Origin: Nostoc punctiforme PCC 73102
Lineage (GTDB): Bacteria > Cyanobacteriota > Cyanobacteriia > Cyanobacteriales > Nostocaceae
Length of the DNA stretch: 32,000 nt
Assembly (NCBI RefSeq): GCF_000020025.1
Contig: NC_010628.1
Coordinates: 2,820,001 to 2,852,000 of the forward strand
Reading direction: 5' to 3'
Positions within the stretch are counted from its first letter, which is position 1. Every line of letters starts with the position of its first letter. Positions 422 to 31,745 of the stretch are shown here, one piece after another. A program made the position numbers and the translations under genes. The notes under the pieces are model-generated. The model did not search any database. It saw only the letters and a list, made by a program, of their open reading frames with translations, and was not told where the DNA came from.

Positions 422-1112
422 GCACCATGCTTTAAAGTAAGTGAACGTAAATAATTGTCGTTAGGATAAGGCAATAGGTATAACAGTTTTAGCGTACTTC
501 ATTTTTCTTTACATAGTTTGATTTTATTCTGGCAACTTACTTAACCCGTAAACAAAATCGAATTTAACATTGCCAAAAATTGTCTGCAATGCTACGCTGT
601 GACTGAAATTGTACATACTATAAATATGTATAAATTTCAGAGTTAATTTAATCATTAGCTGGGTTAATTTAAGTAAAAAAATATTAACTTTTTTGTTAAC
701 CTGCATATAATACCCAATTAGCTCCGATAACTGAATCGTATAACTGAAATTTGTTGTTTAATCCAAATTAATCAGGCTTTAGTTTTGATTAAAGCCACAC
801 ATAACTTATTCATATAACCCCTTTCTAAACCTCCCGTCCATAGGGATAGAGGCTCTGATTCTTACTAACCTTACCTTTTAGTGAAGGGTTTAGGGGTAAT
901 GTTTGAGTGCAATTTGTACACGACAACAAATTATTATCGACACCATTTTTCTTGAATTTTCTGGAAAAGCTTTGATTGCTTTTGAATTCCAATACTAGTA
1001 GTTAAAAATCCTGCTGCATCATTAGAAATCTTGATTAGATTAGCTTTTGCCTCCATCTGTAATCTAGATGAAGTGTATATTTTCATGTCCATAATTGCTA
1101 AGGATGAATACA

Positions 1113-3446: not shown

Positions 3447-3457
3447 CTTTAGGAGAT

Positions 3458-3527
3458 AGGGGGGCAGGAGGCAGGGGGCAGGGGGCAGGGAACAGGGGGA
3501 GCAGGGGAGAATTCGTAATTCGTAACT
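3458..3527. repeat. G-rich heptamer-type short tandem repeats (GGGGCAG variants) followed by AATTCGT x2
   Basis: Read directly: ggggggcaggaggcagggggcagggggcagggaacagggggagcaggggaga attcgtaattcgtaact. This is typical Nostocales intergenic STR. Confidence 0.7.
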
Positions 3528-3533
3528 CTTCAC

Positions 3534-3630
3534 GGGCTGAACCTTAGCTATCCGCTAACAGCACTCCTCATTGGCTAAACCTTAGCTATCCGCTAATAGC
3601 ACGGGCTAAACGCCCCGCTATCGCTAACGG
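3534..3630. repeat. Three degenerate ~30-38 nt direct repeats (gggctRaaccttagctatccgctaaYagcac)
   Basis: Copies at about 3534-3565, 3573-3602 and 3603-3630. They lie in the spacer between the oxidoreductase and hydrolase genes. Confidence 0.6.
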
Positions 3631-3674
3631 AACTGTTTTGCCCAATGCCCTAATCTTTTAACAAATCTATCAAA

Positions 3675-4724
3675 ATGAACACCACAACATATACTCAATC
3701 TTTACAAGAAAGAATAGTACCTTTTACTAGCAAAGATGGCTTTGAATGTAACTTAATTAACGTTAGAGGTGAAAAGCCTCCTTCTAAATCGCCTGTATTA
3801 CTAGCGCATGGTGCAGGAGTCAGAGCAAATATCTTTCGCGCTCCTGTGGATACTAATATAGTTGATTACTTAGTTGCTCATGGTTATGACGTATGGTTAG
3901 AAAACTGGCGTGCCAGTATTGACTTAAATCCTAATCATTGGACACTTGACCGAGCCGCAGTGAATGACCATCCACAAGCGGTGAAAACAATTGTCGAAGA
4001 GACGGGTTATGAAAAGATCAAAGCTATCATCCATTGTCAGGGATCTACTAGTTTCATGATGTCTGTGGTGGCTGGCTTAGTCCCACAAGTCAAAACTATT
4101 ATCAGCAATGCCGTTTCACTGCATCCGATTGTACCTTCATGGTCATCTTTCAAAATTAATTTTGCAGTACCAGCCGTCAATTTCCTCACCGATCATTTAA
4201 ACCCACAATGGCAAATAGATTCACCAAGTCTAGCTGCAAAAATCATCTCTCTGGTCGTGGGTCTTACCCATCACGAATGTAATAATTCAGTCTGTAAACA
4301 AGTTAGCTTTACTTATGGGACTGGCTTCCCGGCATTGTGGGAACACGCCAACCTCAACGAAGCCACCCACGAATGGCTAAAGCAGGAATTCGCCTATGTG
4401 CCGCTCAGTTTTTTCGCACAAATGTCTCAGTGCATCAATCGTGGACATCTAATTTCTGTTGATAACTTCCCCAATTTCCCAAAAGATTTTATTGCCCAAC
4501 CACCAAAAACCGATGCCCGTATTGCATTTTTTGCTGGGCAACTTAACCGTTGCTTTCTCCCACAAAGTCAGATAGAAACTTTTAAATATTTTGACTCTCT
4601 GCGTCCTAGTTACCATGCTTTACACGTTCTGGATAACTACAGTCATTTAGACATATTTATGGGTAAGAATGCAGCCAAAGATGTGTTTCCCTTAATGCTT
4701 GCAGAATTAGAAAAGACTGTTTGA
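3675..4724 (+). CDS. alpha/beta-fold hydrolase (lipase/esterase-like) with an atypical nucleophile elbow
   Basis: 349-aa ORF. It has PVLLAHGAGVRANIF (oxyanion region), IIHCQGSTSFM where GxSxG is expected, and a C-terminal YSHLDIFMG (candidate catalytic His). Confidence 0.75.
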   Translation: MNTTTYTQSLQERIVPFTSKDGFECNLINVRGEKPPSKSPVLLAHGAGVRANIFRAPVDTNIVDYLVAHGYDVWLENWRASIDLNPNHWTLDRAAVNDHPQAVKTIVEETGYEKIKAIIHCQGSTSFMMSVVAGLVPQVKTIISNAVSLHPIVPSWSSFKINFAVPAVNFLTDHLNPQWQIDSPSLAAKIISLVVGLTHHECNNSVCKQVSFTYGTGFPALWEHANLNEATHEWLKQEFAYVPLSFFAQMSQCINRGHLISVDNFPNFPKDFIAQPPKTDARIAFFAGQLNRCFLPQSQIETFKYFDSLRPSYHALHVLDNYSHLDIFMGKNAAKDVFPLMLAELEKTV

Positions 4725-4796
4725 AAAGTGCAGATTCCATTCTCTAGACCTGTGTTACCTCCCTCCACCAATAAATTTAATTATGTGTGAAAAAAT

Positions 4797-5705
4797 ATGA
4801 TACCTCAACGTTTAAAACAACAAACAGGACTTTATGCCCTAGTTGATGGCATACCTTTTCAGTTACCCGTTAATTCTGAACAGACACCAGCATTGATGGC
4901 GGTATTTCCGATTAACGCCGATCGCGCTAAAGAATTGATCCTAGCCAAAGAAGTACATCCTCTGCGACTATGGAATAATCAGGGGTTGTTAGTAATCACA
5001 GTGATTAATTATCAGATTACTGACATTGGTAAATACATCGAATTTAGTATTGCGATCGCCTGCACTCATGGCGCAAAACCAGCCCCGCCATTACTACCTG
5101 GTTTATTGATGCAACAGTACGGCACTGGGCAGTATGTACTTGATTTACCTGTTAGTACCGAAATTTCTGTCAAAGGGGGTAAAGGAATTTGGGGAATGCC
5201 CAAACATCAAGCTAACTTGGACTTTGTGATTGGCGATCGCACTGTCAGCAGTCAATATGATTTAGATGGGCAACTAGTGATGAAAATTGAAGTTGCCAAA
5301 CCCGCCAAAGCTTGGTTTCCCCTGAAAATGGGTGCAGCAAACTACTGTGCATTTCGCGGAATGTTGATGAAATCCGTGATTTACTTTCAAGGGAAATTGG
5401 GATTTTCGCTGTTTAAACCAGGTTCAGCCAAACTTACCATAGGCGATCATCCCCGTATCCAATCACTAAAACACCTAGAGATTAGCCCCGAACCTATATT
5501 TACAGGCTTTTTCCCGGAAATCACAGGGATGCTAGATGACCATTTGGAGAGTTGGTTTCTTGGCTACGACACACCCCCCACACAACAACCAGAAGGTTTA
5601 GAAAGTGTAGTTAATTTAGGTTTGGGTCAAGAATGGCTACCAGCGCCAAAGGCTTTGCCCAAGGATGATCAAGCCGAGATGTATGTAGTACCAATTAAAA
5701 ATTAA
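4797..5705 (+). CDS. acetoacetate decarboxylase (ADC)-like family protein
   Basis: 302-aa ORF. GKYIEFSIAI and VKGGKGIWGMPKHQANLDF resemble the Y-x-E and GRExWGxPKK motifs of the ADC family. The size fits. It starts 72 nt after the upstream gene. Confidence 0.6.
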   Translation: MIPQRLKQQTGLYALVDGIPFQLPVNSEQTPALMAVFPINADRAKELILAKEVHPLRLWNNQGLLVITVINYQITDIGKYIEFSIAIACTHGAKPAPPLLPGLLMQQYGTGQYVLDLPVSTEISVKGGKGIWGMPKHQANLDFVIGDRTVSSQYDLDGQLVMKIEVAKPAKAWFPLKMGAANYCAFRGMLMKSVIYFQGKLGFSLFKPGSAKLTIGDHPRIQSLKHLEISPEPIFTGFFPEITGMLDDHLESWFLGYDTPPTQQPEGLESVVNLGLGQEWLPAPKALPKDDQAEMYVVPIKN

Positions 5706-5713
5706 TCAAAAAT

Positions 5714-6133
5714 ATGATGAATAACGGTAAAGTACTCCACTTATCATTAATTGGCATTGCCATTTTCACCATTGTGAGTGGATTGTTGCAAATGGTTTTG
5801 CCTAGTTTGGTACTCTACATTGTCTCAGCAGAAGTAACCCCGACTAGCCAGCATTTTTTTGCCATCATCGGTATGTTTATGCTGCTGTTTAACGGCGCAC
5901 TGTTACAAGCATTAATCAGCCCACAACCCCAACCTATTGTCTTAATTTGGGCAGGATTACAAAAATTTGGTGCTTCAATAACCGTTTGTTTGGCTGTTAT
6001 CAGGCTAATTTTTTCCCCATTCGCGCTGCTAATTGCTGGTTTTGACCTGTTATCAGGAGTATTAATTTTCTGGTACTTGTTTCGCTTGCGTACTTTTACA
6101 CCAGGATACACTTATGAGCAACCAACCGCATAA
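5714..6133 (+). CDS. small integral membrane protein (about 4 TM segments), function unknown
   Basis: 139-aa hydrophobic ORF. It starts 8 nt after the ADC-like gene and overlaps the patatin gene start by 20 nt. Confidence 0.6.
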   Translation: MMNNGKVLHLSLIGIAIFTIVSGLLQMVLPSLVLYIVSAEVTPTSQHFFAIIGMFMLLFNGALLQALISPQPQPIVLIWAGLQKFGASITVCLAVIRLIFSPFALLIAGFDLLSGVLIFWYLFRLRTFTPGYTYEQPTA

Positions 6134-7655
6134 ACCTTACGGCACTCCTGAACCAACATACTCAGGGAATAAACGTTCCTTGATTTTAGCTGGTGGTGGA
6201 ATGCGTGTAGCTTACCAAGCTGGAGCTATCCGCGCCTTAATCGAATCAGGACTGTGTTTTAATCATGCGGATGGTACTTCCGGCGGTACGATGAATTTAG
6301 CAATGCTGCTATCTGGACTATCGCCGATTGAGATGTGCGATCGCTGGCAGACTTTGAATGTTAAAGATTTTGTCTCCTTTATCCCTCTAGAAAAATACCT
6401 CAAAGCCTGGGATTTGTTATCTATGGGAGATGCAGATGGCATTATCGATCGCGTTTTCCCCCACTTGGGAATTGATATCAGCAAAATCAATGCCTCGGAG
6501 GGAATGCAAGGTACATTTAATGTTTGCAACTTTACCCACAAAACTAATGAAGTCATTCCCCACGATCGCTTAGATTTAGATTTATTGGTTGCAGGGATTT
6601 CTCTCCCCATCTTTATGCCACCTGTACAAAAAGGTGATTATCTATACATGGATTCCGTGTGGATTAAAGATGTTAATCTCATGGAAGCGGTGCGCCGGGG
6701 TGCAGATGAACTTTGGGTATTGTGGTGCATTGGCAATAGTAGCGAATATCAAACGGGAATTTTTAATCAATATGTCCACATGATGGAACTGAGTGCGAAC
6801 GGGGCATTTTTTGAAGAGTGCGATCGCATCAATGAAATCAACCAGAGAATTTTGCAAGGGGAGACAGTCTACGGACATACCCAACCGATCAAACTCCACC
6901 TCATCAAACCCGCTTATCCTTTACCTCTTGATCCTGATTACTATTTGGGAAACATTGATGGTGCAACTTTGGTTGATATGGGTTACGCCGATGCTAAACA
7001 ATATTTGCAAACCATGTCACCCGCAGGATTGCCCTTCCAGCCAGACGTGACCCGAATGCACAATAATTTGCCAGGAATGACTTTCCGCGAAAGCATGGCG
7101 GGTGCGTTTGTTTTAAATGAGACTGACCCGATTCAGGGTGCAGCAAAAGGCAAAGCGCACAATTCCTCACTCTCATTGCAACTGACCATTAACATTTGTG
7201 ACTTAAAACGTTTTTTGGGTGATACTACTTTTACTGCTAGTATTGCTGGTAACATTAGTTTTGCGAATTTTGGCGAACACATTCCCTTCAAAAGAGGCGT
7301 GTTTAACCTGTTTGCTCATGACCATAATCCCGGATATAAATACATTACTTATGAACTTGCTTTTGAACATGGTAATCAAGATTACTACTTAGTAGGCAAG
7401 AAAGAACTGCATAACGATCCGGGATTTGATTTGTGGCAAGACATGACAACTATCTATACTTACCTACATCAAGGTACAGATAACAACAGTCCCATTATTG
7501 GTTCAGGAATTTTAACCCTAGATGTGGGTGACGTAGCCAAGTGCGTTTCCGGGTGGCGAATTACTAACGCCAAGTCACTGACAGAGAAAACTACATTATT
7601 GGCAGAGTTTGGTAGTTTTTTCTGGGGCAATATTTGGGAAACTTACCAACCGTAA
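6114..7655 (+). CDS. patatin-like phospholipase with the same C-terminal domain as the GMC oxidoreductase
   Basis: LILAGGGMRVAYQAG (GGGxR oxyanion motif), GTSGG (GxSxG serine) and YMDSVW (candidate Asp of the dyad). The C-terminal ~190 aa (nt ~7070-7652) align with 2850-3443, for example HNDPGFDLWQDMTTIY against HDDPGFDVWSDTTTLF. Confidence 0.85.
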   Translation: MSNQPHKPYGTPEPTYSGNKRSLILAGGGMRVAYQAGAIRALIESGLCFNHADGTSGGTMNLAMLLSGLSPIEMCDRWQTLNVKDFVSFIPLEKYLKAWDLLSMGDADGIIDRVFPHLGIDISKINASEGMQGTFNVCNFTHKTNEVIPHDRLDLDLLVAGISLPIFMPPVQKGDYLYMDSVWIKDVNLMEAVRRGADELWVLWCIGNSSEYQTGIFNQYVHMMELSANGAFFEECDRINEINQRILQGETVYGHTQPIKLHLIKPAYPLPLDPDYYLGNIDGATLVDMGYADAKQYLQTMSPAGLPFQPDVTRMHNNLPGMTFRESMAGAFVLNETDPIQGAAKGKAHNSSLSLQLTINICDLKRFLGDTTFTASIAGNISFANFGEHIPFKRGVFNLFAHDHNPGYKYITYELAFEHGNQDYYLVGKKELHNDPGFDLWQDMTTIYTYLHQGTDNNSPIIGSGILTLDVGDVAKCVSGWRITNAKSLTEKTTLLAEFGSFFWGNIWETYQP

Positions 7656-7830
7656 ATTCCAAATTAAACCTCTGCTGAGTGGAGTATAAAGGTTTAAGGG
7701 TGTAGGGAAAATACATTTTCATGTTTAGTTGTGCAATTTTCTCTTGAATCCTTCCCGCCTTCTCCCAAAGGGAGACGCTAAAAGCGATCTGCCTTCTGCC
7801 TTCTTTCACAACTTTTCAGGAGAAATTAAC

Positions 7831-10035
7831 ATGAGCGATCGCCTTATGCCTTTACCCTCATCATTCTTATTCGGTGTTGCAACTGCTGACCATCAGTGTG
7901 AAGCTTACGATTCCCAGTTTGAAGATATTCGGGATGTATGGGAACGTCGTCGCGGTATTACGGTCAGGGGTCGAGCCACTGACTTTTGGCATCGCTACGC
8001 TGAAGATATTGCCTTAGCTCAGTCCCTTGGTTGCAAGTCTTTCCGGTTTTCGATCGCTTGGTCACGGGTAGAACCTGAACCCGGTAAGTTCAGTGAAGAA
8101 GCTTTTGAACATTATCGCCAAGTAATTGAAACTATCAGATCGCATGGTTTAGAACCAATTGTAACTCTGCATCACTTCACCCATCCCATCCATGTAGAAG
8201 CACGGGGGGGTTTAACTGCGCCAGAATTTCCAGCTATTTTTGCTAACTACGCCACAGAAGTCGCCAAGCGTTTGGGTCATTTGGCACGTTATTGGATTAG
8301 CTTTAACGAACCTAGCCAATTAATTTACGGTTACATCAAGCCTTGGTGGGAAAGAGCCTATTTTATGCCCCCAGGTTTAGAGCGCGGTGCAACTATTGCC
8401 GATCAAATGACCGCCGTGCAGAAACTCATGCGGAATTTGTTTGTCTCCCATACACGCGCCAGAAATATCCTCAAAGAGTACAACCCAGATGCTCAAGTGG
8501 GAGCAAACCCCATGTTATTGGGTCTGCCTCTATGGTTGCAGAAATTGGTGGATCACAATGTCACTAATCTGCGTCGTCCCGAAGATATGATTTCTCAGGG
8601 TAAACGTTTTACTGAGCGCAGTTTGTTGGAAAAAGGAAAAGTTGATGTTGTCATTGCTAATTTGACTATTACCGCCGAGCGACAACAGCAAGTAGCGTTT
8701 TCGGAAACTTATTATCAGGCGGGGCAATTTCTCTTAGTCAAAGCCACCAGTCCCATTCAGCAACCAGAAAATCTGGCTCAGAAAACAGTAGCAGTTATCA
8801 AAAGTGCGACGGCAGAATCTACCATAGAATACCTGTTACCCAGAGTTGAAGTCAAAGTAGTAGAAGATTACGCTGATGCCTTGCAAGCCTTGGATTATGA
8901 GCAAGTGAGCGCCATTCTTGCAGATGACACAATTCTCTTGGGTCTGATGAGACAACAACCAGGGCAATATCGACTGGTGGGTAAAAATGGTGAAGGGCTG
9001 ACAGTAGAGAACTATGGCGCAGCTGTAGTTAAAGGCGATCGCGCCTTCTTGAATATTGTAGATACAGTAGTGCGACAGTTTAAAGAATCCGGGGCTTGGC
9101 AAGCTAGCTATAGTCATTACTTCCCTAATCAACCCGTCCCACCTGTACCGAAAATCGGCAGACGTTCAACCCTAGCTGACATCACCACAGGCGGATCTTC
9201 TAGTCCAACTATCGGACAGCCTCAACCCGGTACACCACTGCGACGCATTCAAGACCGTGGTTATTTAGTTGTCGCAGTCAAAGAAAACGTACCTGGGTTT
9301 GGCTACCGCGACCCCAAAACCGGAGAATTTAGCGGCTTAGAGATTGATTTAGCGCGTTTAATCGCCAAGCAAATCTTTGGCGATCCCAGCAAAGTGAAAT
9401 TTGTCGCCGTTTCCACCCAACAACGCTTACCCGTACTGCGATCGCTCACCCGCATCTTTGACCCAATTTTCAAGATTTTCAGCGTACTTTCCACATCACT
9501 GACAAGTAACTGGTGGCACTTAGGTATGGCTGGGAAATTACCCACATTCCTCTGTCCTCAAGAATGTGTAGGTCAACAAGATTTTGTTGGTTTTGACTAT
9601 TACTGGGGGATTAGCAATCTTCGACTCAACCGCATTCAACAATTAATGGATGCTGCTTTTGGACGTTTTAGTAATGCGCCAGTTTGGTCTGGTGTTCTCT
9701 ACGATATGCTCAAATTCCACGCCCAGTTATTCCCCGATAAAGAAATTATGATTATTGAGAATGGCTGTGTAGAAGTAGCCGATAAAGTCGTCAAGCGCGA
9801 AGACTACATTCGCCAGCATCTCCAACAAGTGCAACGCGCTCGTCAAGACGGGATAAACGTCATCGGTTACGTCTCCTGGTGCATCACCTCCAACCGCGAG
9901 TGGGGTCTGAAATTTGGCCCAGATAGCGATTTTGGACTATATCACATTGACCTAGATACAGACCCAGAACTCAAACGCCAACCAACCCCAGCCGCTAACT
10001 TATACCGCGATATCATCAAACAAAACAGCGTCTAA
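7831..10035 (+). CDS. glycoside hydrolase family 1 (beta-glucosidase-like) carrying an inserted, apparently circularly permuted solute-binding-protein (SBP_bac_3-like) domain
   Basis: ATG at 7831 is preceded by CAGGAG at 7817-7822; the longer ORF from 7729 lacks homology-like sequence. GH1 motifs: FLFGVATADHQCE, FRFSIAWSRVEP, LHHFTHP, FNEP (acid/base Glu codon 8308-8310), DFVGFDYYWG, IIENG (nucleophile Glu codon 9757-9759) and WCITSNREWG. The SBP-like segments lie between nt ~8635 and ~9445. Confidence 0.85.
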   Translation: MSDRLMPLPSSFLFGVATADHQCEAYDSQFEDIRDVWERRRGITVRGRATDFWHRYAEDIALAQSLGCKSFRFSIAWSRVEPEPGKFSEEAFEHYRQVIETIRSHGLEPIVTLHHFTHPIHVEARGGLTAPEFPAIFANYATEVAKRLGHLARYWISFNEPSQLIYGYIKPWWERAYFMPPGLERGATIADQMTAVQKLMRNLFVSHTRARNILKEYNPDAQVGANPMLLGLPLWLQKLVDHNVTNLRRPEDMISQGKRFTERSLLEKGKVDVVIANLTITAERQQQVAFSETYYQAGQFLLVKATSPIQQPENLAQKTVAVIKSATAESTIEYLLPRVEVKVVEDYADALQALDYEQVSAILADDTILLGLMRQQPGQYRLVGKNGEGLTVENYGAAVVKGDRAFLNIVDTVVRQFKESGAWQASYSHYFPNQPVPPVPKIGRRSTLADITTGGSSSPTIGQPQPGTPLRRIQDRGYLVVAVKENVPGFGYRDPKTGEFSGLEIDLARLIAKQIFGDPSKVKFVAVSTQQRLPVLRSLTRIFDPIFKIFSVLSTSLTSNWWHLGMAGKLPTFLCPQECVGQQDFVGFDYYWGISNLRLNRIQQLMDAAFGRFSNAPVWSGVLYDMLKFHAQLFPDKEIMIIENGCVEVADKVVKREDYIRQHLQQVQRARQDGINVIGYVSWCITSNREWGLKFGPDSDFGLYHIDLDTDPELKRQPTPAANLYRDIIKQNSV

Positions 10036-11454: not shown

Positions 11455-12185
11455 CTATGTTAAATTTGGATATAAACGCTCCATTTTTCGGCGAGCATCT
11501 TTGGTTTGAAAACCCCAATAAACACTAGCTTTTTGCTGATTACGTTTTTTCTCCCAAGCGGCAATCTCAGAAGTTAATGTTTCTGCATTAGGAATACGCC
11601 GTTCTAAACATTGGCGAGATAAAACAGATAATTCGATTTCTACCTGATTCAGCCCTTCGGGTTCGCCAGTTGCTTCAAGTCGGGGAACCCGCCCAACGCA
11701 CTGGCTCACCAAGAAGCGTGTTTAGGAGTATAGTGAAACTCTAACTTTTGAATAATTCGACGTGCTTCTTCTGGTGGAAAAACTTCATATAATGCATTGG
11801 GTGTATGAATATTCAAGTTATCAACTACTAAACGAATAACATCGGCATCTCGGTAGGAAACATCTACTAAATTTTTCATTTGTTTAGCAAAATCGGCTTT
11901 AGTTCGACGTTCTGTAACTTCGATATGCCGCCATCCAGCCAAGGGTTGAAAACATGCGAATAAATTTACTGTCCCGTTACGTTTATACTCAAAATCATAA
12001 CGTTCAGGTTGCTCTGGCTGTGGTGGCAAAGGAAGTCTTACTTTTTCTACTAATTGGTATGGACGTTCATCAAAGCAGACTACAGGGCGTTTAGGATCAT
12101 AAGGCTCATTGTATAAATCCAGCACATCTTCCATTCGGAAAACATATTCTGCGTTAACTTCAGGAATACACCATTGTTCTTTCAA
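11455..12185 (-). pseudogene. IS630-family transposase DDE domain, split by a 56-nt insertion
   Basis: ORF 11706-12185 ends ...HYTPKHASW, then a stop. ORF 11455-11712 resumes with LNQVEIELSVL after 56 extra nucleotides. The expected contiguous sequence is ...KHASWLNQVEIE..., so the domain is broken between the second Asp and the Glu of the catalytic triad. Confidence 0.8.
11653..11708 (-). repeat. 56-nt hairpin-containing mini-insertion inside the transposase gene
   Basis: On the minus strand the insert reads tgagccagtgcgttgggcgggttccccgacttgaagcaactggcgaacccgaaggg. It contains GGGTTC...GAACCC inverted repeats. Its length is not a multiple of 3 and it introduces a TGA. The boundaries are ambiguous by a few nt. 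Confidence 0.6.
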
Positions 12186-12622
12186 CCAAGGCTTAATTTC
12201 ATTTTTTTTAAAGTTTGACGTACTGTTTCATCTGAGATTGAATCTATGATACCAACGTTCACTAAATGATCTGCTAATAATTGCATTGTCCAACGCACTC
12301 TTCCTTCTGGCGGATTAGAACAAGCTGTTGCAATCAAAAATGCTTCTTGCTTTTCATCTAATTTTTTATGTTTTGGTGGATGAACTTCATCCTTTAAAGC
12401 AAAATCTAACCCTCCAATGACAAATTTTTCTCGTATTCGTTGCACTGTTGCAACATGCGCTCTAACTATGCTAGCGATCGCTTGATCCGTTTCTCCTTCG
12501 GAAGCCATCAAAAGAATGTTTGCACGGCTTATGGTTCTTGCCTTATGCTTACCTTTCTTAATTATCGATTGCAGTTGGGAAACTTCATCTTCATTCAAGT
12601 CAACAATGTACTTTTTTGCCAT
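12182..12622 (-). CDS. IS630-family transposase, N-terminal helix-turn-helix part (orfA)
   Basis: 146-aa ORF. It ends just after an A8 run (T8 at 12202-12209 on the + strand). The -1 frame continues as [14 protein letters not shown], the usual junction of IS630 transposases. Confidence 0.8.
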
Positions 12623-25225: not shown

Positions 25226-25881
25226 TAAATTTTAGCTAGACGTTGTTCTTTCAAGTAAGTAAATACAGATTTATCTCCAATATCCGCAGGAATTGCTTGT
25301 ACTGTCTTTCGCAAAGCAAATACCAAAAACAACGTTGCCCAAATTCCTAATAAAACACTTTCCCCCTGAGTTGGTAAAATTCCCACCAAATGTCCTAATA
25401 ACAGCAGCGGTACTATTAGGGTTAATACTTTAGTTTCCAAGCGATTGAAGCAAAAAGCCTCTTTAAAATAAATCCCTGTCAAAGCAACGAAAATAAAACC
25501 AACCCCAAATAAGGTAAGAGGCTGATTGTAAACAGTCAGAGCTAAAGGTTGAGTACTAGAGATTGCCAGAATTACTGATGCCATACTACCGAGCGCCCAA
25601 AAAATTTGTAACATTCGATGCAGTGATGCTATGTAGATATGAATGGTAAATAAACTTACACCAAGAGCGAGACTAAAACAAGCATATAAAGGTGTAAGTG
25701 CAGTTACAACAGTCGGGTTATTGTTGAACAAAATCAAAGCGCTGCCTATAGCAAAGCTGACTGCTGCTACCATTAAGCCAGCGCGGTAGATCATTACGCC
25801 AGTGCGATCGCTCTGAGTAATTGTAAATTCCCCAAACTGACCTTGATAAACTTCTAGTGGAGGTAGTGTTTGCGTAGTCAT
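25225..25881 (-). CDS. conserved polytopic membrane protein (about 6 TM; possibly DUF2301-type, unverified)
   Basis: 218-aa hydrophobic ORF, translationally coupled to the DUF218 gene. Confidence 0.7.
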   Translation of the reverse strand: MTTQTLPPLEVYQGQFGEFTITQSDRTGVMIYRAGLMVAAVSFAIGSALILFNNNPTVVTALTPLYACFSLALGVSLFTIHIYIASLHRMLQIFWALGSMASVILAISSTQPLALTVYNQPLTLFGVGFIFVALTGIYFKEAFCFNRLETKVLTLIVPLLLLGHLVGILPTQGESVLLGIWATLFLVFALRKTVQAIPADIGDKSVFTYLKEQRLAKI

Positions 25882-26031
25882 AGTTAAAAATATTGTTACG
25901 ATTTACTAATAGAGTACAATGGTAAATTGGTGAAGGGTTAGCTTTATTATCGATAATAAGACGAACTTCGTGTCACAATCGCTAAAATTTAAGCAATTTT
26001 TGTCGTATTAGTATAGCTAAAAGTGAGATGA

Positions 26032-26097
26032 GCGATCGCATTACAGAATACTTTCCACTTAAGTCGATAGCGATCGCAATTAGACAAAGTGTATAAT
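26032..26097 (+). promoter_or_regulatory. Conserved upstream control element, copy 1: HIP1 - 30 nt - HIP1 - 14 nt - TATAAT
   Basis: gcgatcgcattacagaatactttccacttaagtcgatagcgatcgcaattagacaaagtgTATAAT is nearly identical, with identical spacing, to 28251-28316 upstream of the paralogous gene. Confidence 0.5.
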
Positions 26098-26138
26098 TCG
26101 TTTCAAAAATACGCCTTGTGAGTCTAAGGTAGGGTGAG

Positions 26139-28202
26139 ATGAGCGATCGCATAATTGGGCGCAAGAAATCAGCCGCATCAACTTTTACGAATCCGTCGCT
26201 TGCCTCACCAGGTATTCCGACACTAGCGAACCCAATACACGGCTTTGGTTCACAAATCAATACTGCCCCGCTCCAAACAGTAACTGAAGTAGCCCCAGAG
26301 CTTCAAGAGGCACAGTCTGCTGATGGGCAATTATTAGAACCAGAAGCGATCAAAGAAAAACCCCTTAGTCACGACATAAGTCGCATATCATTACGTCGTC
26401 CACAGCCAAAACTTACCGTTGGTCAGCCTGGAGACAAATACGAACAAGAAGCGGAGATGAATGCTCAGGCATTTACGCACAAGCAAGATGTTTACTTTGA
26501 TGCGGGGAAGGCTCCTACCCATAAATTGACTCATTTGGTGCAGCAAACTGGTGATGCAGCAAGCCATAAGGTTATTCAGCGCTATCAGGCAGGGGAATCA
26601 GGACATGGCTCAATAGAGAAAAAAGGCTTGATATTAGCTGGCTTCACTGCCGACGAAGCAGCAGAGGCTTATCTAGGTAATTGGATGCGTGATTTATCAC
26701 AACTCGGCCCAGATATGTTTCCTTTGGTGGAACTGCTGGGAATGGGGGAATTTGGCAAGCCAATCGACCAGAGTAAACTGGGAACCTATGTTCCTTCAGA
26801 ACACATGGATAATCCCGACGGAGGTAATACCGTTGAAGATCCGACTTCAACAACCACCGCAAAGGATGTTGATGCTCGTAATGAAAATAAAAAGCAACTA
26901 TCCGAATCCCAAAAGAAAGACCAAGAAGCAGCTGATGCAGCCTATGCCGAGATCAAAGCTGCCGCAGCAAAGAATCGTCTGCCAGCTTATATTGAGCGCG
27001 GCAAGTTTATGGCTAAGAGAAAATTGGTAGAGGCAATCAAAAAAGGTGATACATCAGAGGGACGGGAGGAGATGAGTAGTGCTTTACATGCTATAGAAGA
27101 TTATTTTTCTCATACCAACTTTACTGAAGCAGCCATCTGGGTACTGGCGAAGGAAAACCCAGCTAAATATAAGCCTCTGATGGCTAAGATGTCCCAGACA
27201 ACTTTAGGGATAGGTACAGCAACGGTGGGTGGATTAGATAAAAAAGGACTACCCCAAATTATCAGTGGCACTTATGTTGCAGGTGCTAACAACATGGTTA
27301 GTAAAATTGAATTACTCAAAACCGAACTAGAGAGTGGGGCTTTAACTGTAGCCTTAGTAAAAGGCTTGATGATGAAAGGAGGCATTACAGCAGATGTTCT
27401 TGCCAATAAGTTAGGTGAGAAGATGGGAGTTAAACCAATCTTCCGTACTGTTGAAGGTGGGATAGGTGCAGTAGTGGGTGGTGTAGAAGGAGCAGTTAAA
27501 GGTACTGCTAGCGGTGCGAGAACAGGCGGGGCGGCAGGTCGGAAAATCGGCGGGCTTTTTGGTACTCTTGGCGAAGTTGTGGGTGAAGAAATTGGCGAGC
27601 AAGTTGGTGGTGTAGTTGGCGGTGTATCCGGTGGTGTATCCGGTGCTAGAGCAGGCAAAGCCGCAGGTGAAGAAATGGGCGAACAGGATGCCGAAGCCAT
27701 TCTTAAAGCAGCTGGCTTTGCGATTAAAGGTGGTATGGTTGTAATTACGGCCGGGACTATGGCTACCTTACTTACACTCTTCCCAGTAATTGCAGCGGAT
27801 TTGGCAGCAGTTGTCAGTGTGGCGAAAAGTAAATTAGGACAAAAACTATTAGATGCTTATGCTGAGAAAAAAGTGGCGGAGTCCACTAAAGAGGCGAAAG
27901 CCAAAGGTTTGACTGGCCCCACTCACTCAGAGCTTGCCAAGGATGCTCCCGACCACCCGCTCTTTGATGCTTCTGCCTCGCTAGCTGTGGAGGCGGTGAA
28001 AGGAGTTGGTGTTGCCATGAAGGTAGCGTGGGCACAGAATAAGACGAATCCTCCATCGACAGAACCTGTTGGCACAGAGGCAGTTACGAACCAGGTTGAT
28101 AAATATGTCTGCGCTTTAGATGGTGATGGGTGGTGGCGACCCATTATCGAGAAACAAGCAACGGCGGCTGGGATTACTACTTCTGGTGGTGCAGACAATT
28201 AA
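26139..28202 (+). CDS. DUF4157-leader protein with truncated/degenerate peptidase motif, HET-C-like domain, glycine-zipper region and TM segment
   Basis: The leader PLSHDISRISLRRPQPKLTVGQPGDKYEQEAE is of the DUF4157 type. HKLTHLVQQTG replaces HELTHVVQQTG. HET-C-like motifs: GESGHGSIE, YLGNWMRDLSQL, LGTYVPSEHMDNPDGG and HAIEDYFSHTNFTEAAI. Gly-rich repeats lie at 27451-27693, and a hydrophobic segment GGMVVITAGTMATLLTLFPVIAADLAAVV follows. Confidence 0.8.
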   Translation: MSDRIIGRKKSAASTFTNPSLASPGIPTLANPIHGFGSQINTAPLQTVTEVAPELQEAQSADGQLLEPEAIKEKPLSHDISRISLRRPQPKLTVGQPGDKYEQEAEMNAQAFTHKQDVYFDAGKAPTHKLTHLVQQTGDAASHKVIQRYQAGESGHGSIEKKGLILAGFTADEAAEAYLGNWMRDLSQLGPDMFPLVELLGMGEFGKPIDQSKLGTYVPSEHMDNPDGGNTVEDPTSTTTAKDVDARNENKKQLSESQKKDQEAADAAYAEIKAAAAKNRLPAYIERGKFMAKRKLVEAIKKGDTSEGREEMSSALHAIEDYFSHTNFTEAAIWVLAKENPAKYKPLMAKMSQTTLGIGTATVGGLDKKGLPQIISGTYVAGANNMVSKIELLKTELESGALTVALVKGLMMKGGITADVLANKLGEKMGVKPIFRTVEGGIGAVVGGVEGAVKGTASGARTGGAAGRKIGGLFGTLGEVVGEEIGEQVGGVVGGVSGGVSGARAGKAAGEEMGEQDAEAILKAAGFAIKGGMVVITAGTMATLLTLFPVIAADLAAVVSVAKSKLGQKLLDAYAEKKVAESTKEAKAKGLTGPTHSELAKDAPDHPLFDASASLAVEAVKGVGVAMKVAWAQNKTNPPSTEPVGTEAVTNQVDKYVCALDGDGWWRPIIEKQATAAGITTSGGADN

Positions 28203-28250
28203 TAATGTTCCAACTCGTTTTAGGGTGAATTTATAGCTTTAGTAAAATGT

Positions 28251-28316
28251 GCGATCGCATTACAAAATAATTTCCACTTAAGTCCATAGCGATCGCAATT
28301 AGATAAATTTTATGAT
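28251..28316 (+). promoter_or_regulatory. Conserved upstream control element, copy 2: HIP1 - 30 nt - HIP1 - 14 nt - TATGAT
   Basis: gcgatcgcattacaaaataatttccacttaagtccatagcgatcgcaattagataaattttatgat parallels 26032-26097. Confidence 0.5.
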
Positions 28317-28365
28317 GTGTGTTATCAATATGCCTTGGTTGAGCCATAAATGAAGGAAGGGTGAT

Positions 28366-30339
28366 ATGAGCAATGACGGACAACAAGCTTCTGGGCATCT
28401 ACGCATAGTTCAGCACCAAAAAGCAGGTATATCCACTGTTCTAAATCCGTCCCTTACCTCATCAACTATTCCCACGCTGGCTTCTCCAATGCGTGGCTTT
28501 GGTTTACAAACAAATAATCCTCCAATTCAAAGACTAACTGAGGCATCAACTGAGCTTCAAGAAGTGCAGTCTGCTGATGAGCAATTTTTGGAACCAGAAG
28601 CCGTCAAACAACAGCCCCTTAGTCATGATATTAGTCGCATATCTTTGCATCGTCCCCAGGCAAAACTCACCGTTGGTGCGCCAGACGACCATTATGAGCA
28701 GGAAGCCGATCGAGTTGCCGATCGGATTATGCGAATGGCTGAACCAGAGCCAATAGGTTTACAGAATACACAGACTCAAGACCAAGTGCAAACTAAGCCT
28801 CTAGCCTCTGCCATAACTCCTTTAGTGCAACGGGAGGCAATGCCAGAAGAGGAAGAGGAACTACAAACGAAACTTATTAATGCACCTATCCAAAGAGAGA
28901 TTTTACCAGAAGAAGAATTACAAACTAAGCGATCGCTACAACTCGCTACCAATGACAGCTTCCAAACTGGGGACAACTTTGAGAGTCGCCTAAACAGCAG
29001 TGAAGGTGGAGGAAGCCCGTTACCAGATACAGTGCGTTCTTTCATGGAACCACGTTTTGGTACAGATTTTAGTCAAGTACGCGTACATACAGGTACTCAA
29101 GCGGTACAAATGAATCAGGATTTAAATGCCCAGGCATTTACGCACCAGCAAAACATTTTCTTTGGTGCGGGTAAGTCACCAGGTAATGATGCATTAACCG
29201 CCCATGAACTGACTCATGTGGTGCAGCAGACAGGAACAGCCCAGAGAAAATTGATTCAACGGGCAATTAACCCCACATACGACCTGACACACGGAATTTT
29301 TGAAGTAAATGCCACACCCAACGGCGCGAGTCTACCGATTACTATTCGTTTTAAACCCAAAACCACTGCTCCCTACTCTAACCAGATTGGACTGATTCAG
29401 ATTGTCCGTCTGACAAATGCTACAGGTACAAATGTCGAACCTCAGTCTTTACCTGCTGCTAGTGGTGCTAGCCTCCGTACCACTGCTGATGCAACCACGG
29501 GAGTTGAAGGCGGATATTTCACTGATGCGCTGCATAATGATGCACCTGCTCATGGTGGTACAGGAACCAATGCCCCAGCCGGAAGTGCATTACCTGCCCA
29601 GTACCCCTTTGGCAACGACCCAGCCCAACCCAATCCCGCAACCCCTGGACTTTCACGGCCCTCTTCTAGTGGTGCAAGCGGAGCCACTATTGGTTACAAA
29701 CGCTCCGATGACCCCACTGATATCAAAGCAGCAGAACTAACCGATGCTCCCGGAGGGGCTGGTGAGTTCAACTTCGACTTTCAGACGGTGGCTAAAGGAG
29801 AAGACACCATGACAACTTACGGAGCGCTTCATTGGGGCTTCCAAATCCGTGCTGGCAAAGTTGAGAACGATCGTGCATCAGCACAAGATGGTCAATCCGC
29901 CACCTTTGATGCAGCTTTGCAGAAGCACCAGGATTTTTACGTACATGAACCAGTCATTTTTTACTTTGATTTCGACAGCGACCAACTGAGTTCCAGCGAA
30001 ACAGGCAAGATTGATACATTCTTAGACTACCTGCGGCGATTCCCTGATGTCAAAGTAACTCCTGAAGGCTTTGCTGACAGGCGTGGCGGTGCATCTGGGC
30101 ACAACCTGGATCTATCTTTACGCAGAGCGCAGGCAGTGGGAGCAGCCCTGCGTGCTAAGGGTGTAGCTGAAGCTCAAATTAGTGCTGTTACTATCGGCTC
30201 TGGTTCAACCGAAGACTTTACCCCTGATGCCACTACTAACCAAGATACAGAAGCAAATCGCCGGGGTAATCGCCGAGTCGTCTTGAGCTTTGAGCATGTG
30301 CCAGCAGCAGCTCCAGCAGGGGGAGGAGGGACACCGTGA
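28366..30339 (+). CDS. DUF4157 zinc-metallopeptidase-like protein with an unassigned central domain and a C-terminal OmpA-like peptidoglycan-binding domain
   Basis: KLTVGAPDDHYEQEADRVADRIM, LPDTVRSFMEPRFGTDFSQVRVHTG and NAQAFTHQQNIFFG...LTAHELTHVVQQTG give a full DUF4157 with HExxH. The C-terminus FYFDFDSDQLS...GFADRRGG...NLDLSLRRAQAV...NRRGNRRVVLSF is the OmpA_C pattern. Confidence 0.85.
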   Translation: MSNDGQQASGHLRIVQHQKAGISTVLNPSLTSSTIPTLASPMRGFGLQTNNPPIQRLTEASTELQEVQSADEQFLEPEAVKQQPLSHDISRISLHRPQAKLTVGAPDDHYEQEADRVADRIMRMAEPEPIGLQNTQTQDQVQTKPLASAITPLVQREAMPEEEEELQTKLINAPIQREILPEEELQTKRSLQLATNDSFQTGDNFESRLNSSEGGGSPLPDTVRSFMEPRFGTDFSQVRVHTGTQAVQMNQDLNAQAFTHQQNIFFGAGKSPGNDALTAHELTHVVQQTGTAQRKLIQRAINPTYDLTHGIFEVNATPNGASLPITIRFKPKTTAPYSNQIGLIQIVRLTNATGTNVEPQSLPAASGASLRTTADATTGVEGGYFTDALHNDAPAHGGTGTNAPAGSALPAQYPFGNDPAQPNPATPGLSRPSSSGASGATIGYKRSDDPTDIKAAELTDAPGGAGEFNFDFQTVAKGEDTMTTYGALHWGFQIRAGKVENDRASAQDGQSATFDAALQKHQDFYVHEPVIFYFDFDSDQLSSSETGKIDTFLDYLRRFPDVKVTPEGFADRRGGASGHNLDLSLRRAQAVGAALRAKGVAEAQISAVTIGSGSTEDFTPDATTNQDTEANRRGNRRVVLSFEHVPAAAPAGGGGTP

Positions 30340-31013
30340 TCTTGAGAACGATAGGAATATTCGTGATAGTTGTGATGCTGGCCATTGGAGGAAATTTGTA
30401 TATGAATAATCAAGACGCTACCGCGATACCTATGGAGCAGATCAAAGCACGTCTCTACTCCACAGATCAAGACACTAGCGCTTTAGCACTGGGTGAATTG
30501 ATCCGTTTAGGCAAAAAAGCTACCCCGGTTTTGTTGGAAGCTTTGACTAACCCCAACCCCCGTACCCGTCGGCTTGCAGCCGAGGGACTGAGCGAAATTG
30601 CCGATCCCGCTAGTGCCGATGCTTTGTTCCAAGCCACTCATGATACTAATCCAGAAGTGCGTGCCCGTGCTGCCACTGCCCTACACCAATTAGGAGATAA
30701 ACGGTCATTATCCGCTTTGGTCGCTACCCTTGATGATTACCCTGACATCCTGCACAATCCCTACACAGCTTCGATGTATCCTTTAATGCGGGGTGGAAAA
30801 GAAGTTTTACCTTTGGTAATTCCTCTTTTGCAAGCACCAAACGATCTCACTCGTGAGCGAGCTTTTTTGATTGTTAAGGCTGTAGTGAGTAAGCTACCCC
30901 AAGGGCAAGACTGGAATCAGTTGTGGCAGAGTTTGGGAAGTTATGATCCCGCAGGCCAAAAAGCAGAACGTGACAAGGCTGCTCAACAATGGCAGGAATG
31001 GTTGAGCAAATAA
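30336..31013 (+). CDS. membrane-anchored HEAT-repeat (PBS-lyase HEAT-like) protein
   Basis: The GTG start overlaps the upstream stop (GTGA at 30336-30339). TM anchor IGIFVIVVMLAIGG. Repeats: NPNPRTRRLAAEGLSEIADPASADAL and DTNPEVRARAATALHQLGDKRSLSAL. Confidence 0.75.
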   Translation: MILRTIGIFVIVVMLAIGGNLYMNNQDATAIPMEQIKARLYSTDQDTSALALGELIRLGKKATPVLLEALTNPNPRTRRLAAEGLSEIADPASADALFQATHDTNPEVRARAATALHQLGDKRSLSALVATLDDYPDILHNPYTASMYPLMRGGKEVLPLVIPLLQAPNDLTRERAFLIVKAVVSKLPQGQDWNQLWQSLGSYDPAGQKAERDKAAQQWQEWLSK

Positions 31014-31208
31014 TTGAATTATTCACAAAAAAACTAAGTATGTTACGAAACGTAAATAAGCTTAAAACCTTTACTAATGACCAATGACATAGACGCTTCT
31101 GCGGCTACTCTTCGAGTTCTCCGAAGGAGTACCCGCAGGGTAGGACAAATGACAGCCTTAGCCAGTTAGCTTTAATTTCGCCGATCTACTTACCCATTAG
31201 TAGCGGAG

Positions 31209-31745
31209 TTACCTAACCGTATTATCGAGTCCCCCTACAATTCTTGAACCCAAACAAAGCGCGATGGTGAGCGATGCTGCTGCTGCTAGCGCCGCTACCG
31301 TCCGAATGTGATTCCAGATTGTCCAGTTGGTCAGGTAGCTAGACCATAGGCTCGCCCCTTCAGTGCTGTCCGGCTCGACTTTCGCCAGGGCTTCGTTGAG
31401 CGGCACATTGAAAACTATTGTCACGCCTAATGTACCAACAAGGTAGAGCAAGCTGCCGAGAAGCAAGTAGGCGGCACCGGGTTGATGCCACTTTAATAGC
31501 GAGGAGATTAAAAGAAAGATACAAGCCACAGCCGTTCCCAAAAACGCTGTCATAAAAAATGGATTGATTACCGTGATATTGATGGATTGCATAGCAGCAA
31601 TGCCTTGCGGTGGTTTCAGCCGAGCAAGGGCGCTCATTACGAAGGTTGAGAAGCCGAAGAAGACTCCGGCTATTAGCCCGCAGCCCAGTACCGAGAAAAG
31701 CTTTAATGCGAAATAATATTGTTGATTTATCAAATGTTGCAGCAT
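31209..31745 (-). CDS. DUF1772 (anthrone-oxygenase-like) family membrane protein
   Basis: Four TM segments with GLIAGVFFGFSTFVMSAL, MTAFLGTA, VFNVPLN and WNHIRT, resembling DUF1772. The start is taken at ATG 31745; the maximal ORF starts at 31805. Composition is visibly more GC-rich than the neighbours. Confidence 0.7.
   Translation of the reverse strand: MLQHLINQQYYFALKLFSVLGCGLIAGVFFGFSTFVMSALARLKPPQGIAAMQSINITVINPFFMTAFLGTAVACIFLLISSLLKWHQPGAAYLLLGSLLYLVGTLGVTIVFNVPLNEALAKVEPDSTEGASLWSSYLTNWTIWNHIRTVAALAAAASLTIALCLGSRIVGGLDNTVR

Follow-up and report, generated by a model that had tools for sequence, protein, structure and literature searches.

Two leader-sharing proteins of Nostoc punctiforme as probable cargo of contractile injection systems, with a HEAT-repeat protein as the likely partner of one of them

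The window analysed here is a stretch of 32,000 nucleotides from Nostoc punctiforme PCC 73102 (NC_010628.1, positions 2,820,001 to 2,852,000, forward strand), and it carries three consecutive genes: gene A and gene B, the products of which begin with a leader of about 100 amino acids (aa) in common, and a HEAT-repeat gene. We regard genes A and B as probable independent members of a single polymorphic cargo (effector) family of the phage-tail-like contractile injection systems (CIS) of Nostocaceae, placed here as an orphan effector island, and the HEAT protein as the cognate partner of gene B, most likely a periplasmic immunity protein. This reading is drawn from the leader family, its linkage to CIS genes, a promoter-like element and the pairing of gene B with the HEAT gene; the two genes are parallel members of the family in that they have both leader and promoter element in common. 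An original prediction, made from the sequence of this locus alone, had taken the three genes for one toxin/processing module. Its general view of toxin-like proteins linked to CIS is retained, and the role of immunity factor or adaptor which it gave to the HEAT protein is plausible; gene B as a wall-anchored processing or export partner of gene A is not retained.

A constant leader joined to variable C-terminal domains

The three genes and their parts, in coordinates of the window, are:
26139-28202, + strand: gene A, whole open reading frame (ORF), 687 aa
26139-26456, + strand: gene A leader, candidate CIS loading sequence (aa 1-106)
26457-26582, + strand: gene A DUF4157 remnant (aa 107-148), C-terminal half, HKLTH in place of HExxH
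26583-27338, + strand: gene A Het-C domain (aa 149-400)
27447-27824, + strand: gene A Gly-rich (glycine-zipper-like) stretch and hydrophobic segment (aa 437-562)
28366-30339, + strand: gene B, 657 aa
28366-28710, + strand: gene B leader (aa 1-115)
28711-29010, + strand: gene B E/Q/P-rich linker with repeated xQRE and LQTK motifs (aa 116-215), absent from gene A
29011-29250, + strand: gene B DUF4157/eCIS_core, with HELTH (aa 216-295)
29251-29955, + strand: gene B unnamed beta-sandwich domain (aa 296-530)
29956-30300, + strand: gene B OmpA-like peptidoglycan-binding domain (aa 531-645), with GFADRRG...NLDLSLRRAQAV and NRRGNRRVV
30336-31013, + strand: HEAT-repeat gene, 225 aa; its GTG start overlaps the TGA stop of gene B (GTGA)

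Between the two leaders BLASTP gives 64% identity across 103 aa (E 2e-38), in agreement with the two-thirds that had been estimated by eye. A protein search with gene A recovered about 100 Nostocaceae proteins that start with a leader of this type, which has the consensus MSDR..KKs..S.FtNPSL.S...PTLANP.RGFG ... HDISRISLRRPQAKLTVG.P.D.YEQEAD and, in other members of the family, 55-87% identity to that of gene A. The C-terminal parts behind it vary: Het-C, OmpA, DUF922, Ntox16, M15 peptidase, transglutaminase, a domain termed 'toxin 28' by NCBI, or no known domain, with at least six Pfam-recognised kinds in the family; DUF4157 is present in some members and absent from others. Judged from sequence, this joining of a constant, presumably trafficking-related end to variable cargo is the pattern of a polymorphic toxin family. 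Relatives in other phyla begin with different N-terminal motifs, for example LQRxAGNxA or PFF...FF; the Nostoc leader is an N-terminal domain alike among the cargo of one system and not found in other systems. It would act as a system-specific loading sequence that directs the proteins into the CIS, probably via the Cis15-type AAA+ ATPase. Segment-wise comparison of orthologues indicates that the leader evolves faster than the other domains, and its second half (HDISRISL...YEQEA) aligns with the N-terminal half of the true DUF4157 in the Thermogemmatispora homologue.

The site itself differs between strains. Nostoc sp. LEGE 12447, which has the synteny of the window, carries a third leader gene of 515 aa between genes A and B (L007 10001-11548); its leader is 99% identical to that of gene A, the gene is absent from the window, and it has no match in Pfam or NCBIfam. 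At the same site in Nostoc sp. P12588, downstream of DUF218 and DUF2301 genes, stand a leader+DUF4157 protein of 649 aa and an ankyrin-repeat gene (L010 9965-12544). With different leader-gene content in these two strains, the site in the window is a variable effector island.

The original prediction had the two proteins diverge completely after the leader, and this does not hold: a second BLASTP segment aligns aa 106-148 of gene A with aa 252-299 of gene B (55% identity, E 1e-12), and hence gene A retains the C-terminal half of DUF4157. Its match to eCIS_core scores 17.7 bits, short of the cut-off of 22, and covers only profile positions 32-77 of 79; with HExxH lost as well, gene A falls outside PF13699 on both score and motif, and about 136 aa of gene B (aa 116-251) are missing from it. 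Since the close relatives P0004 and P0006 have a full DUF4157 with HELTH, gene A is a derived, eroded member of the DUF4157 proteins. More of the domain than in gene A has been lost in P0002, P0003 and the A-type gene of L015, with almost none left in P0002 and P0003. Leader and Het-C are retained in all gene A relatives compared, whatever the state of DUF4157. The deletion in gene A appears to have been in register, joining the DUF4157-like segment of the leader to the true C-terminal half; that two independent deletions occurred in this lineage was considered and is weakened, the state of P0002 and P0003 being derivable from an A-like state by further deletion. DUF4157 would be optional in the family, and under erosion in gene A.

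Behind this remnant, Het-C is recognised by Pfam (PF07217, E 1.3e-14, 54.1 bits against a cut-off of 21, aa 169-339). The motif set described for Tox-HET-C, namely H, [DE], HxD, HxxxDxxxH, Nxx[DE] and [ST]G (PMC3482391), is complete: GHG at aa 155, EHMD at aa 221, HAIEDYFSH at aa 317, NFTE in the stretch from aa 325 and SG in the stretch from aa 375. A Gly-rich stretch (about aa 437-520) and a hydrophobic segment (aa 533-562; Kyte-Doolittle 2.0-2.2) follow, as foreseen in the original prediction of a HET-C-like domain, a glycine zipper and a transmembrane segment. Gene A is accompanied by no immunity gene. It would deliver Het-C, a predicted metal-dependent phospholipase-C/nuclease-like hydrolase, along with the glycine zipper and the hydrophobic segment, and may be a hydrolase effector directed at membranes or nucleic acids, with no immunity protein of its own. 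The product is 100% identical to the NCBI entry 'HET-C-related protein [Nostoc punctiforme]', the identical protein is present on 43 contigs, and identity to the LEGE 12447 orthologue is 94-98% in each of four segments.

Gene B had been described as a full HExxH DUF4157 followed by an unassigned domain of about 230 aa and an OmpA-like domain, which is what the profiles return. DUF4157 (PF13699, eCIS_core) is matched at E 1.2e-28 with 99.5 bits, above the gathering cut-off of 22, and HELTH stands at aa 280; OmpA (PF00691) is matched over aa 533-627 of 657 at E 1.2e-14, with 54.8 bits where the cut-off is 27.2; about 235 aa lie between the two Pfam matches. With PF00691 at the extreme C-terminus of a PVC-metallopeptidase protein, gene B has the 'Tox-OmpA' architecture, and its two motifs in this domain are presumably the usual OmpA-like ones. 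All the domain assignments that had been proposed (DUF4157, Het-C, OmpA and HEAT) stand in Pfam.

The middle domain of gene B has no Pfam or NCBIfam family and no sequence match in the PDB at E<=10; it was modelled as a beta-sandwich, with a predicted local distance difference test score (pLDDT) of 78.8. The beta-sandwich family is small, with 177 representatives among 1.84 billion proteins, and eCIS_core is found in 59, OmpA in 49 and LysM in 4 of 70 of them; by these counts the domain belongs specifically to CIS cargo, and the peptidoglycan-binding domains to which it is tied have two different folds. Gene B has neither a Sec signal nor a hydrophobic segment. It would deliver the beta-sandwich and OmpA-like module, which may act on the cell wall in the periplasm.

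The motif xIQR is found exactly at the start of both cargo domains: KVIQRY in gene A (26565-26582) and KLIQRAI in gene B (29242-29262). It recurs in P0022, P0025, P0122 and P0126, distant homologues with quite different N-terminal regions (P0025 starts MAIQRYQAGE), and may mark either the boundary of a domain or a site of processing. Another motif, TRPYWDWLQ, is seen in a second, unrelated type of CIS cargo that ends in OmpA (L092 12047-14242; P0095); in Thermogemmatispora this type comes with DUF4157, whereas in Desmonostoc it has the Nostoc leader and no DUF4157.

A family-wide element upstream of the leader genes

Genes A and B have about 130 bp of upstream DNA in common, with a near-perfect core, as had been noticed at the outset. 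The elements recognised in it are:
26056-26077, + strand: putative family promoter/operator 22-mer (CACTTAAGTCGATAGCGATCGC) upstream of gene A, holding the palindrome ACTTAAGT and a HIP1 site
26092-26097, + strand: candidate -10 box TATAAT of gene A, exactly 14 nt past the 22-mer
28275-28296, + strand: the putative promoter/operator 22-mer upstream of gene B, with 1 mismatch
28311-28316, + strand: -10-like TATGAT of gene B

These are the only two copies of the 22-mer CACTTAAGTCNATAGCGATCGC in the window, against 0.00 expected by chance. Alignment of the 230 nt before 26 leader genes from many species gave a conserved block, ...TTTMCACTTAAGTCGATAGCGATCGC-N14-TATAAT-N30-40-ATG. A search with up to 3 mismatches, over the window and 79 leader-related loci (~1.4 Mb), found 20 copies of the 22-mer, all of them on the + strand: 18 stand 50-82 nt upstream of the ATG of a leader/DUF4157-family gene, and the remaining two are in L022, in the effector slot behind cis16-cis15, with no ORF of at least 150 aa called within 200 nt. 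TA[TA]AAT follows exactly 14 nt downstream in 17 of the 20 copies, and the combination of 22-mer and TATAAT precedes leader-family genes across genera (the window; L007-L024, L063).

The 22-mer is a family-wide element. It probably serves as a promoter/operator which would place the leader genes in one regulon, and the shared upstream DNA would then be the family-wide form of it; the palindrome ACTTAAGT looks like an operator for an as yet unknown regulator. No TTGACA-like -35 box is present in the family promoter, a sign that an activator or a special sigma factor may be needed. A generic promoter and terminator scan gave counts not above those of shuffled controls, with a tool that is blind to a promoter lacking a TTGACA-like -35 box. 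No known RNA element accounts for the shared DNA: an Rfam scan of 25500-31500 at E<=1, the upstream DNA of both genes included, gave no match.

Linkage of the family to contractile injection systems

The 79 loci were obtained by a scan with the leader alignment over one genome per GTDB species, and were taken with 10-kb flanks; their ORFs were clustered and the cluster representatives searched with Pfam. CIS genes lie within 10 kb in 11 of the 23 loci whose gene carries the leader-specific part (aa 1-75, before HDISRI), and they comprise the gp19 tube, CIS_tube, PAAR, VgrG, gp25, Baseplate_J, sheath and Pvc16_N families and a winged-helix domain (WHD)+AAA ATPase. The arrangement is recurrent. 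The Cuspidothrix locus L063 reads tube-sheath, further genes including a kinase, cis16-cis15-[leader gene], and then the baseplate genes after an interval; Anabaena azotica (L022) has a frame like it, in which the slot after cis15 holds the two copies of the 22-mer mentioned above and small ORFs. Several Nostoc genomes have a kinase-cis16-cis15 block followed by a variable leader gene: a gene B orthologue and its HEAT gene, directly after the Pvc16_N-AAA pair, in L024; an Ntox16 toxin with an ankyrin gene in L009; and, in both L017 and L018, a protein of 515 aa. L095 reads B, HEAT, Cis15-type AAA. The Thermogemmatispora locus (Chloroflexota, L092) is a complete cluster in the order Pvc16, AAA, DUF4157+Het-C, further DUF4157 proteins, sheath, tube, and its DUF4157+Het-C protein is 39% identical to gene A (E 8e-84). 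CIS association is therefore seen for the family, for a gene B orthologue (L024), for a B-like gene (L095) and for a gene A homologue (L092), and is lacking in the window. DUF4157 is itself a marker of toxins of extracellular CIS (eCIS) (PMC8213781; PMC11297309).

In three contexts, beta-sandwich(+OmpA)/HEAT genes stand beside the Cis15-type WHD+AAA ATPase (L024 6471-12567, L095 8001-12823 and L094 5814-9849). Genes of a CxxCxxCC family recur nearby in L094 and in the context of P0126.

The machine of the strain itself may already have been described under another name: Npun_F1091-F1118 of N. punctiforme is a co-expressed, dark-induced cluster of tail-sheath (Npun_F1112), tail and GpW genes that was read as a prophage (PMC12691664), and this 'prophage' may be the contractile injection system of the strain and not a phage.

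Pairing of the HEAT protein with gene B, and the alternatives

The HEAT gene (Pfam HEAT_2, E 2.3e-24) starts with a hydrophobic, signal-anchor-like segment at aa 1-19 (Kyte-Doolittle), and both this anchor and the overlap with the stop of gene B are as first described. A HEAT gene adjoins gene B in all eight other B loci (L007, L008, L015, L024, L089, L090, L091, L095); in L089, L090, L091 and L095 the GTGA overlap is seen in the sequence itself, and for L007, L008, L015 and L024 it is implied by the coordinates of ORFs or called genes. These pairs occupy several unrelated chromosomal sites. An A-type gene stands beside the pair in only two of the eight (L007, L015), the other six having no Het-C gene, and A-type proteins occur without gene B in L092 and L093; the co-conservation of all three genes, on which the original prediction had staked itself, is not seen. 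Two non-cyanobacterial homologues of the beta-sandwich+OmpA module, without DUF4157 and with the N-terminal motif LQRxAGNxA, are each followed by a HEAT_2 gene, and of these two HEAT_2 proteins the one that allowed comparison is 38% identical to that of the window over 183 aa (E 7e-35). Across phyla, then, the HEAT protein tracks the C-terminal module of gene B and not gene A, and, as for an Imm-HEAT protein, its gene stands immediately behind that of the toxin domain in the same orientation, and the two are conserved together whatever the N-terminal region. Two candidates were set aside in this comparison: the HEAT_2 protein of Puia (L086) is not an orthologue of that of the window and was left out of the counts, and the DUF4157+OmpA protein of L092 was rejected as a gene B orthologue, its alignment being confined to DUF4157.

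At the N-terminus of Nostocaceae HEAT proteins a basic stretch precedes a hydrophobic segment, and the orthologue in L095 has the lipobox VVLSGC, a lipoprotein signal; such N-terminal export signals would place the HEAT domain outside the cytoplasm. The HEAT protein would be translationally coupled to gene B, exported to the periplasm and anchored there by membrane or lipid, where it most likely confers immunity to gene B.

Several points weigh against genes A and B as CIS cargo and the HEAT protein as an immunity protein. We know of no experiment that shows loading or injection of any cyanobacterial DUF4157 protein. No CIS genes or other secretion or injection genes were found in the 32-kb window, as had been stated from the start. 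The proportion of disorder-promoting residues in the leader is 61%, as compared with 54-56% in folded domains, a small difference and one of composition only. The model of the beta-sandwich has no significant fold match in the PDB and no obvious catalytic residues. The cargo domains of gene B are 95-97% identical across Nostoc species, as compared with 72-78% for its leader and 87% for the HEAT protein, which by sequence is the opposite of what a classic arms-race toxin shows and would suit a conserved accessory role equally. The HEAT orthologue of L088 has no export signal. A search for sheath homologues gave many from Nostoc, and PCC 73102 was not among the 120 matches listed or the cluster members shown; the suggestion that Npun_F1091-F1118 is the matching CIS is drawn from its published gene content (PMC12691664), and a literature search on N. 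punctiforme and contractile injection gave nothing useful. In Anabaena, DUF4157 proteins were detected by mass spectrometry in CIS preparations and not in the structure (PMC8894136).

The main rival for gene B and the HEAT protein makes them a conserved accessory pair of the CIS, with peptidoglycan binding by gene B serving wall crossing or anchoring, or else lysis and release, and with the HEAT protein as a periplasmic receptor or regulator. This we judge unlikely. The conservation of the gene B cargo domains just given speaks for it, as do the place of the pair in the first slot after cis16-cis15 (L024) or beside a Cis15-type AAA (L095, L094), a beta-sandwich+OmpA gene of Puia sp. directly after a CIS tape-measure gene, and the failure to detect a catalytic fold in the beta-sandwich model. 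It sits badly with the leader and promoter of gene B, which are the same as those of clearly toxin-like members such as the Ntox16 protein followed by an ankyrin gene; with stand-alone pairs at three unrelated sites, namely downstream of fabD (L008, L015, L089), in L091 and in the window; and with the earlier argument that OmpA-ended proteins of the PVC type are non-catalytic toxins (PMC3482391).

The single module of the original prediction, with gene B as a wall-anchored DUF4157 metallopeptidase that processes or exports the toxin A and the HEAT protein as immunity protein or adaptor for gene A, is a good deal less probable still. The three genes are indeed adjacent and co-oriented, and HExxH being intact in gene B and lost in gene A makes processing in trans conceivable; moreover DUF4157 genes often adjoin toxins that have no DUF4157 (PMC11297309), and L092 too has a DUF4157+Het-C gene beside a DUF4157+OmpA gene. 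The OmpA protein of L092, however, is homologous to gene B in DUF4157 only; six of the eight other B+HEAT loci have no Het-C gene, and relatives of gene A are found without gene B; gene B, without Sec signal or hydrophobic segment, cannot reach the wall by itself and has the same cargo leader and promoter as gene A; and the HEAT gene follows the C-terminal module of gene B even with other types of N-terminus. Least probable of all is a decaying relic of a tandem duplication, without current function and with the leader and upstream similarity due to recent duplication only: the truncated DUF4157 of gene A with its lost HExxH and the variation of the locus between strains (L007, L010) would suit it, but the three ORFs are intact, the gene A protein is identical on 43 contigs and highly similar to the LEGE 12447 orthologue in all four segments, the Het-C motifs are intact, and the 22-mer and leader are conserved across genera, in many loci and beyond the A-B pair.

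The cargo reading of genes A and B can be extended to a Nostocaceae CIS cargo regulon, with gene B and HEAT as an unrecognised cross-phylum effector-immunity pair and with cleavage at xIQR. We put forward this combination only tentatively, as one that would more probably fail than hold in all its parts. In it, the 22-mer with its palindrome, which has its centre near -43.5 if TATAAT is the -10 box, would be bound by a regulator; all leader cargo genes and the tail-like machine would be switched on together, possibly in the dark as for Npun_F1091-F1118; the leader/DUF4157 part would be cut off at the conserved xIQR junction before both cargo domains; and a non-catalytic wall binder made of beta-sandwich and OmpA would be neutralised by the anchored HEAT protein in the shared periplasm of the filament.

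Relation to known systems

Het-C and OmpA toxins with a PVC-metallopeptidase were catalogued in 2012, and the A/B locus is accordingly of a known kind: joining of PVC-metallopeptidase to Tox-HET-C, Tox-OmpA and Ntox16 was recorded then with cyanobacteria among the hosts, and Imm-HEAT and Imm-Ank classes were listed (Zhang et al. 2012, PMC3482391). Like eCIS-associated toxins, also termed PVC-type polymorphic toxins (PMC3482391; PMC8213781), the window proteins combine an N-terminal region, DUF4157 with HExxH, a long linker and a variable C-terminal toxin domain, and many eCIS-associated toxins have no adjacent immunity gene, as is the case for gene A. They differ in that the genes of the window lie more than 20 kb from any CIS gene, that half of DUF4157 is lost in gene A, and that a beta-sandwich without a Pfam model stands between DUF4157 and OmpA in gene B. 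Moreover, the table of 2012 gives no immunity protein for Tox-OmpA (PMC3482391), whereas here a HEAT protein is consistently paired with the beta-sandwich+OmpA module.

The closest experimental parallel for the leader is AlgoCIS, in which loading requires a disordered N-terminal domain, similar in the two cargo proteins, and can do without DUF4157 (bioRxiv 10.64898/2026.05.27.728243). There too, two cargo proteins have a similar N-terminal domain and DUF4157 followed by different C-terminal domains (PMC8894135). The dispensability of DUF4157 matches its natural loss in gene A with the leader retained, and the graded erosion from P0004 and P0006 (full) through gene A (half) to P0002 and P0003 (almost none) agrees with it. 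The N-terminal domains found in AlgoCIS Cgo proteins have no sequence similarity to the Nostoc leader, and the paper calls such domains system-specific; a further difference is that the Nostoc leader, for which a loading role is proposed by analogy, heads a large multi-locus family with a promoter element of its own.

In the same order (Nostocales), the thylakoid-anchored CIS (tCIS) of Anabaena sp. PCC 7120 has two putative DUF4157 effectors, Alr3311 and Alr3312, whose genes adjoin the CIS cluster (Weiss et al. 2022, PMC8894136). The slot after cis16-cis15 resembles this arrangement, holding a leader-family gene in L063 and two 22-mers in L022; the genes of the window, in contrast, lie away from a CIS cluster.

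Gene B and the HEAT gene can also be compared with the periplasm-acting pairs of type VI secretion systems (T6SS), in which a wall-directed effector gene stands beside a translationally coupled gene for an exported, membrane- or lipid-anchored immunity protein. The likeness, drawn from general knowledge of those systems, is in the layout of wall effector and anchored, exported partner; the differences are in the delivery machine and in the gene B module, in which no hydrolase fold is recognised and whose action may consist of binding alone.

What is modestly new in the present locus is the family-specific leader and promoter motif, the cross-phylum pairing of HEAT with the beta-sandwich+OmpA module, and the natural erosion of DUF4157. 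Of all aspects of CIS, the loading of cargo and its regulation are understood least, and to our knowledge nothing is known of either in cyanobacteria. The leader and promoter motif would allow all Nostocaceae cargo genes to be listed, even those far from the machine, and the leader is a candidate loading tag for the engineering of cyanobacterial CIS. The loss of DUF4157 from gene A with the leader kept suggests that DUF4157 is dispensable; the HEAT protein offers a handle on the mode of action of Tox-OmpA, as a testable partner; and the dark-induced 'prophage' of N. punctiforme may be reinterpreted as an injection system.

Other features of the window

Outside genes A, B and HEAT the window is made up of genes for housekeeping and metabolism, together with a single insertion sequence (IS) element. 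Co-oriented lipid-related genes are found at 1095-7655 (+): a GMC oxidoreductase, an alpha/beta hydrolase, an acetoacetate decarboxylase-like gene, a small ORF and a patatin-like phospholipase. A single ORF of 768 aa at 7729-10035 (+) has the unusual architecture of a family-3 solute-binding domain flanked by matches to glycosyl hydrolase family 1. Overlapping ORFs at 11706-12622 (-), one with HTH_32/HTH_29 (146 aa) and the other with DDE_3 (159 aa), have the look of a split or frameshifted IS630-type transposase. The HIP1 palindrome GCGATCGC is present in 36 copies in the window, a frequency of the order typical for cyanobacteria.

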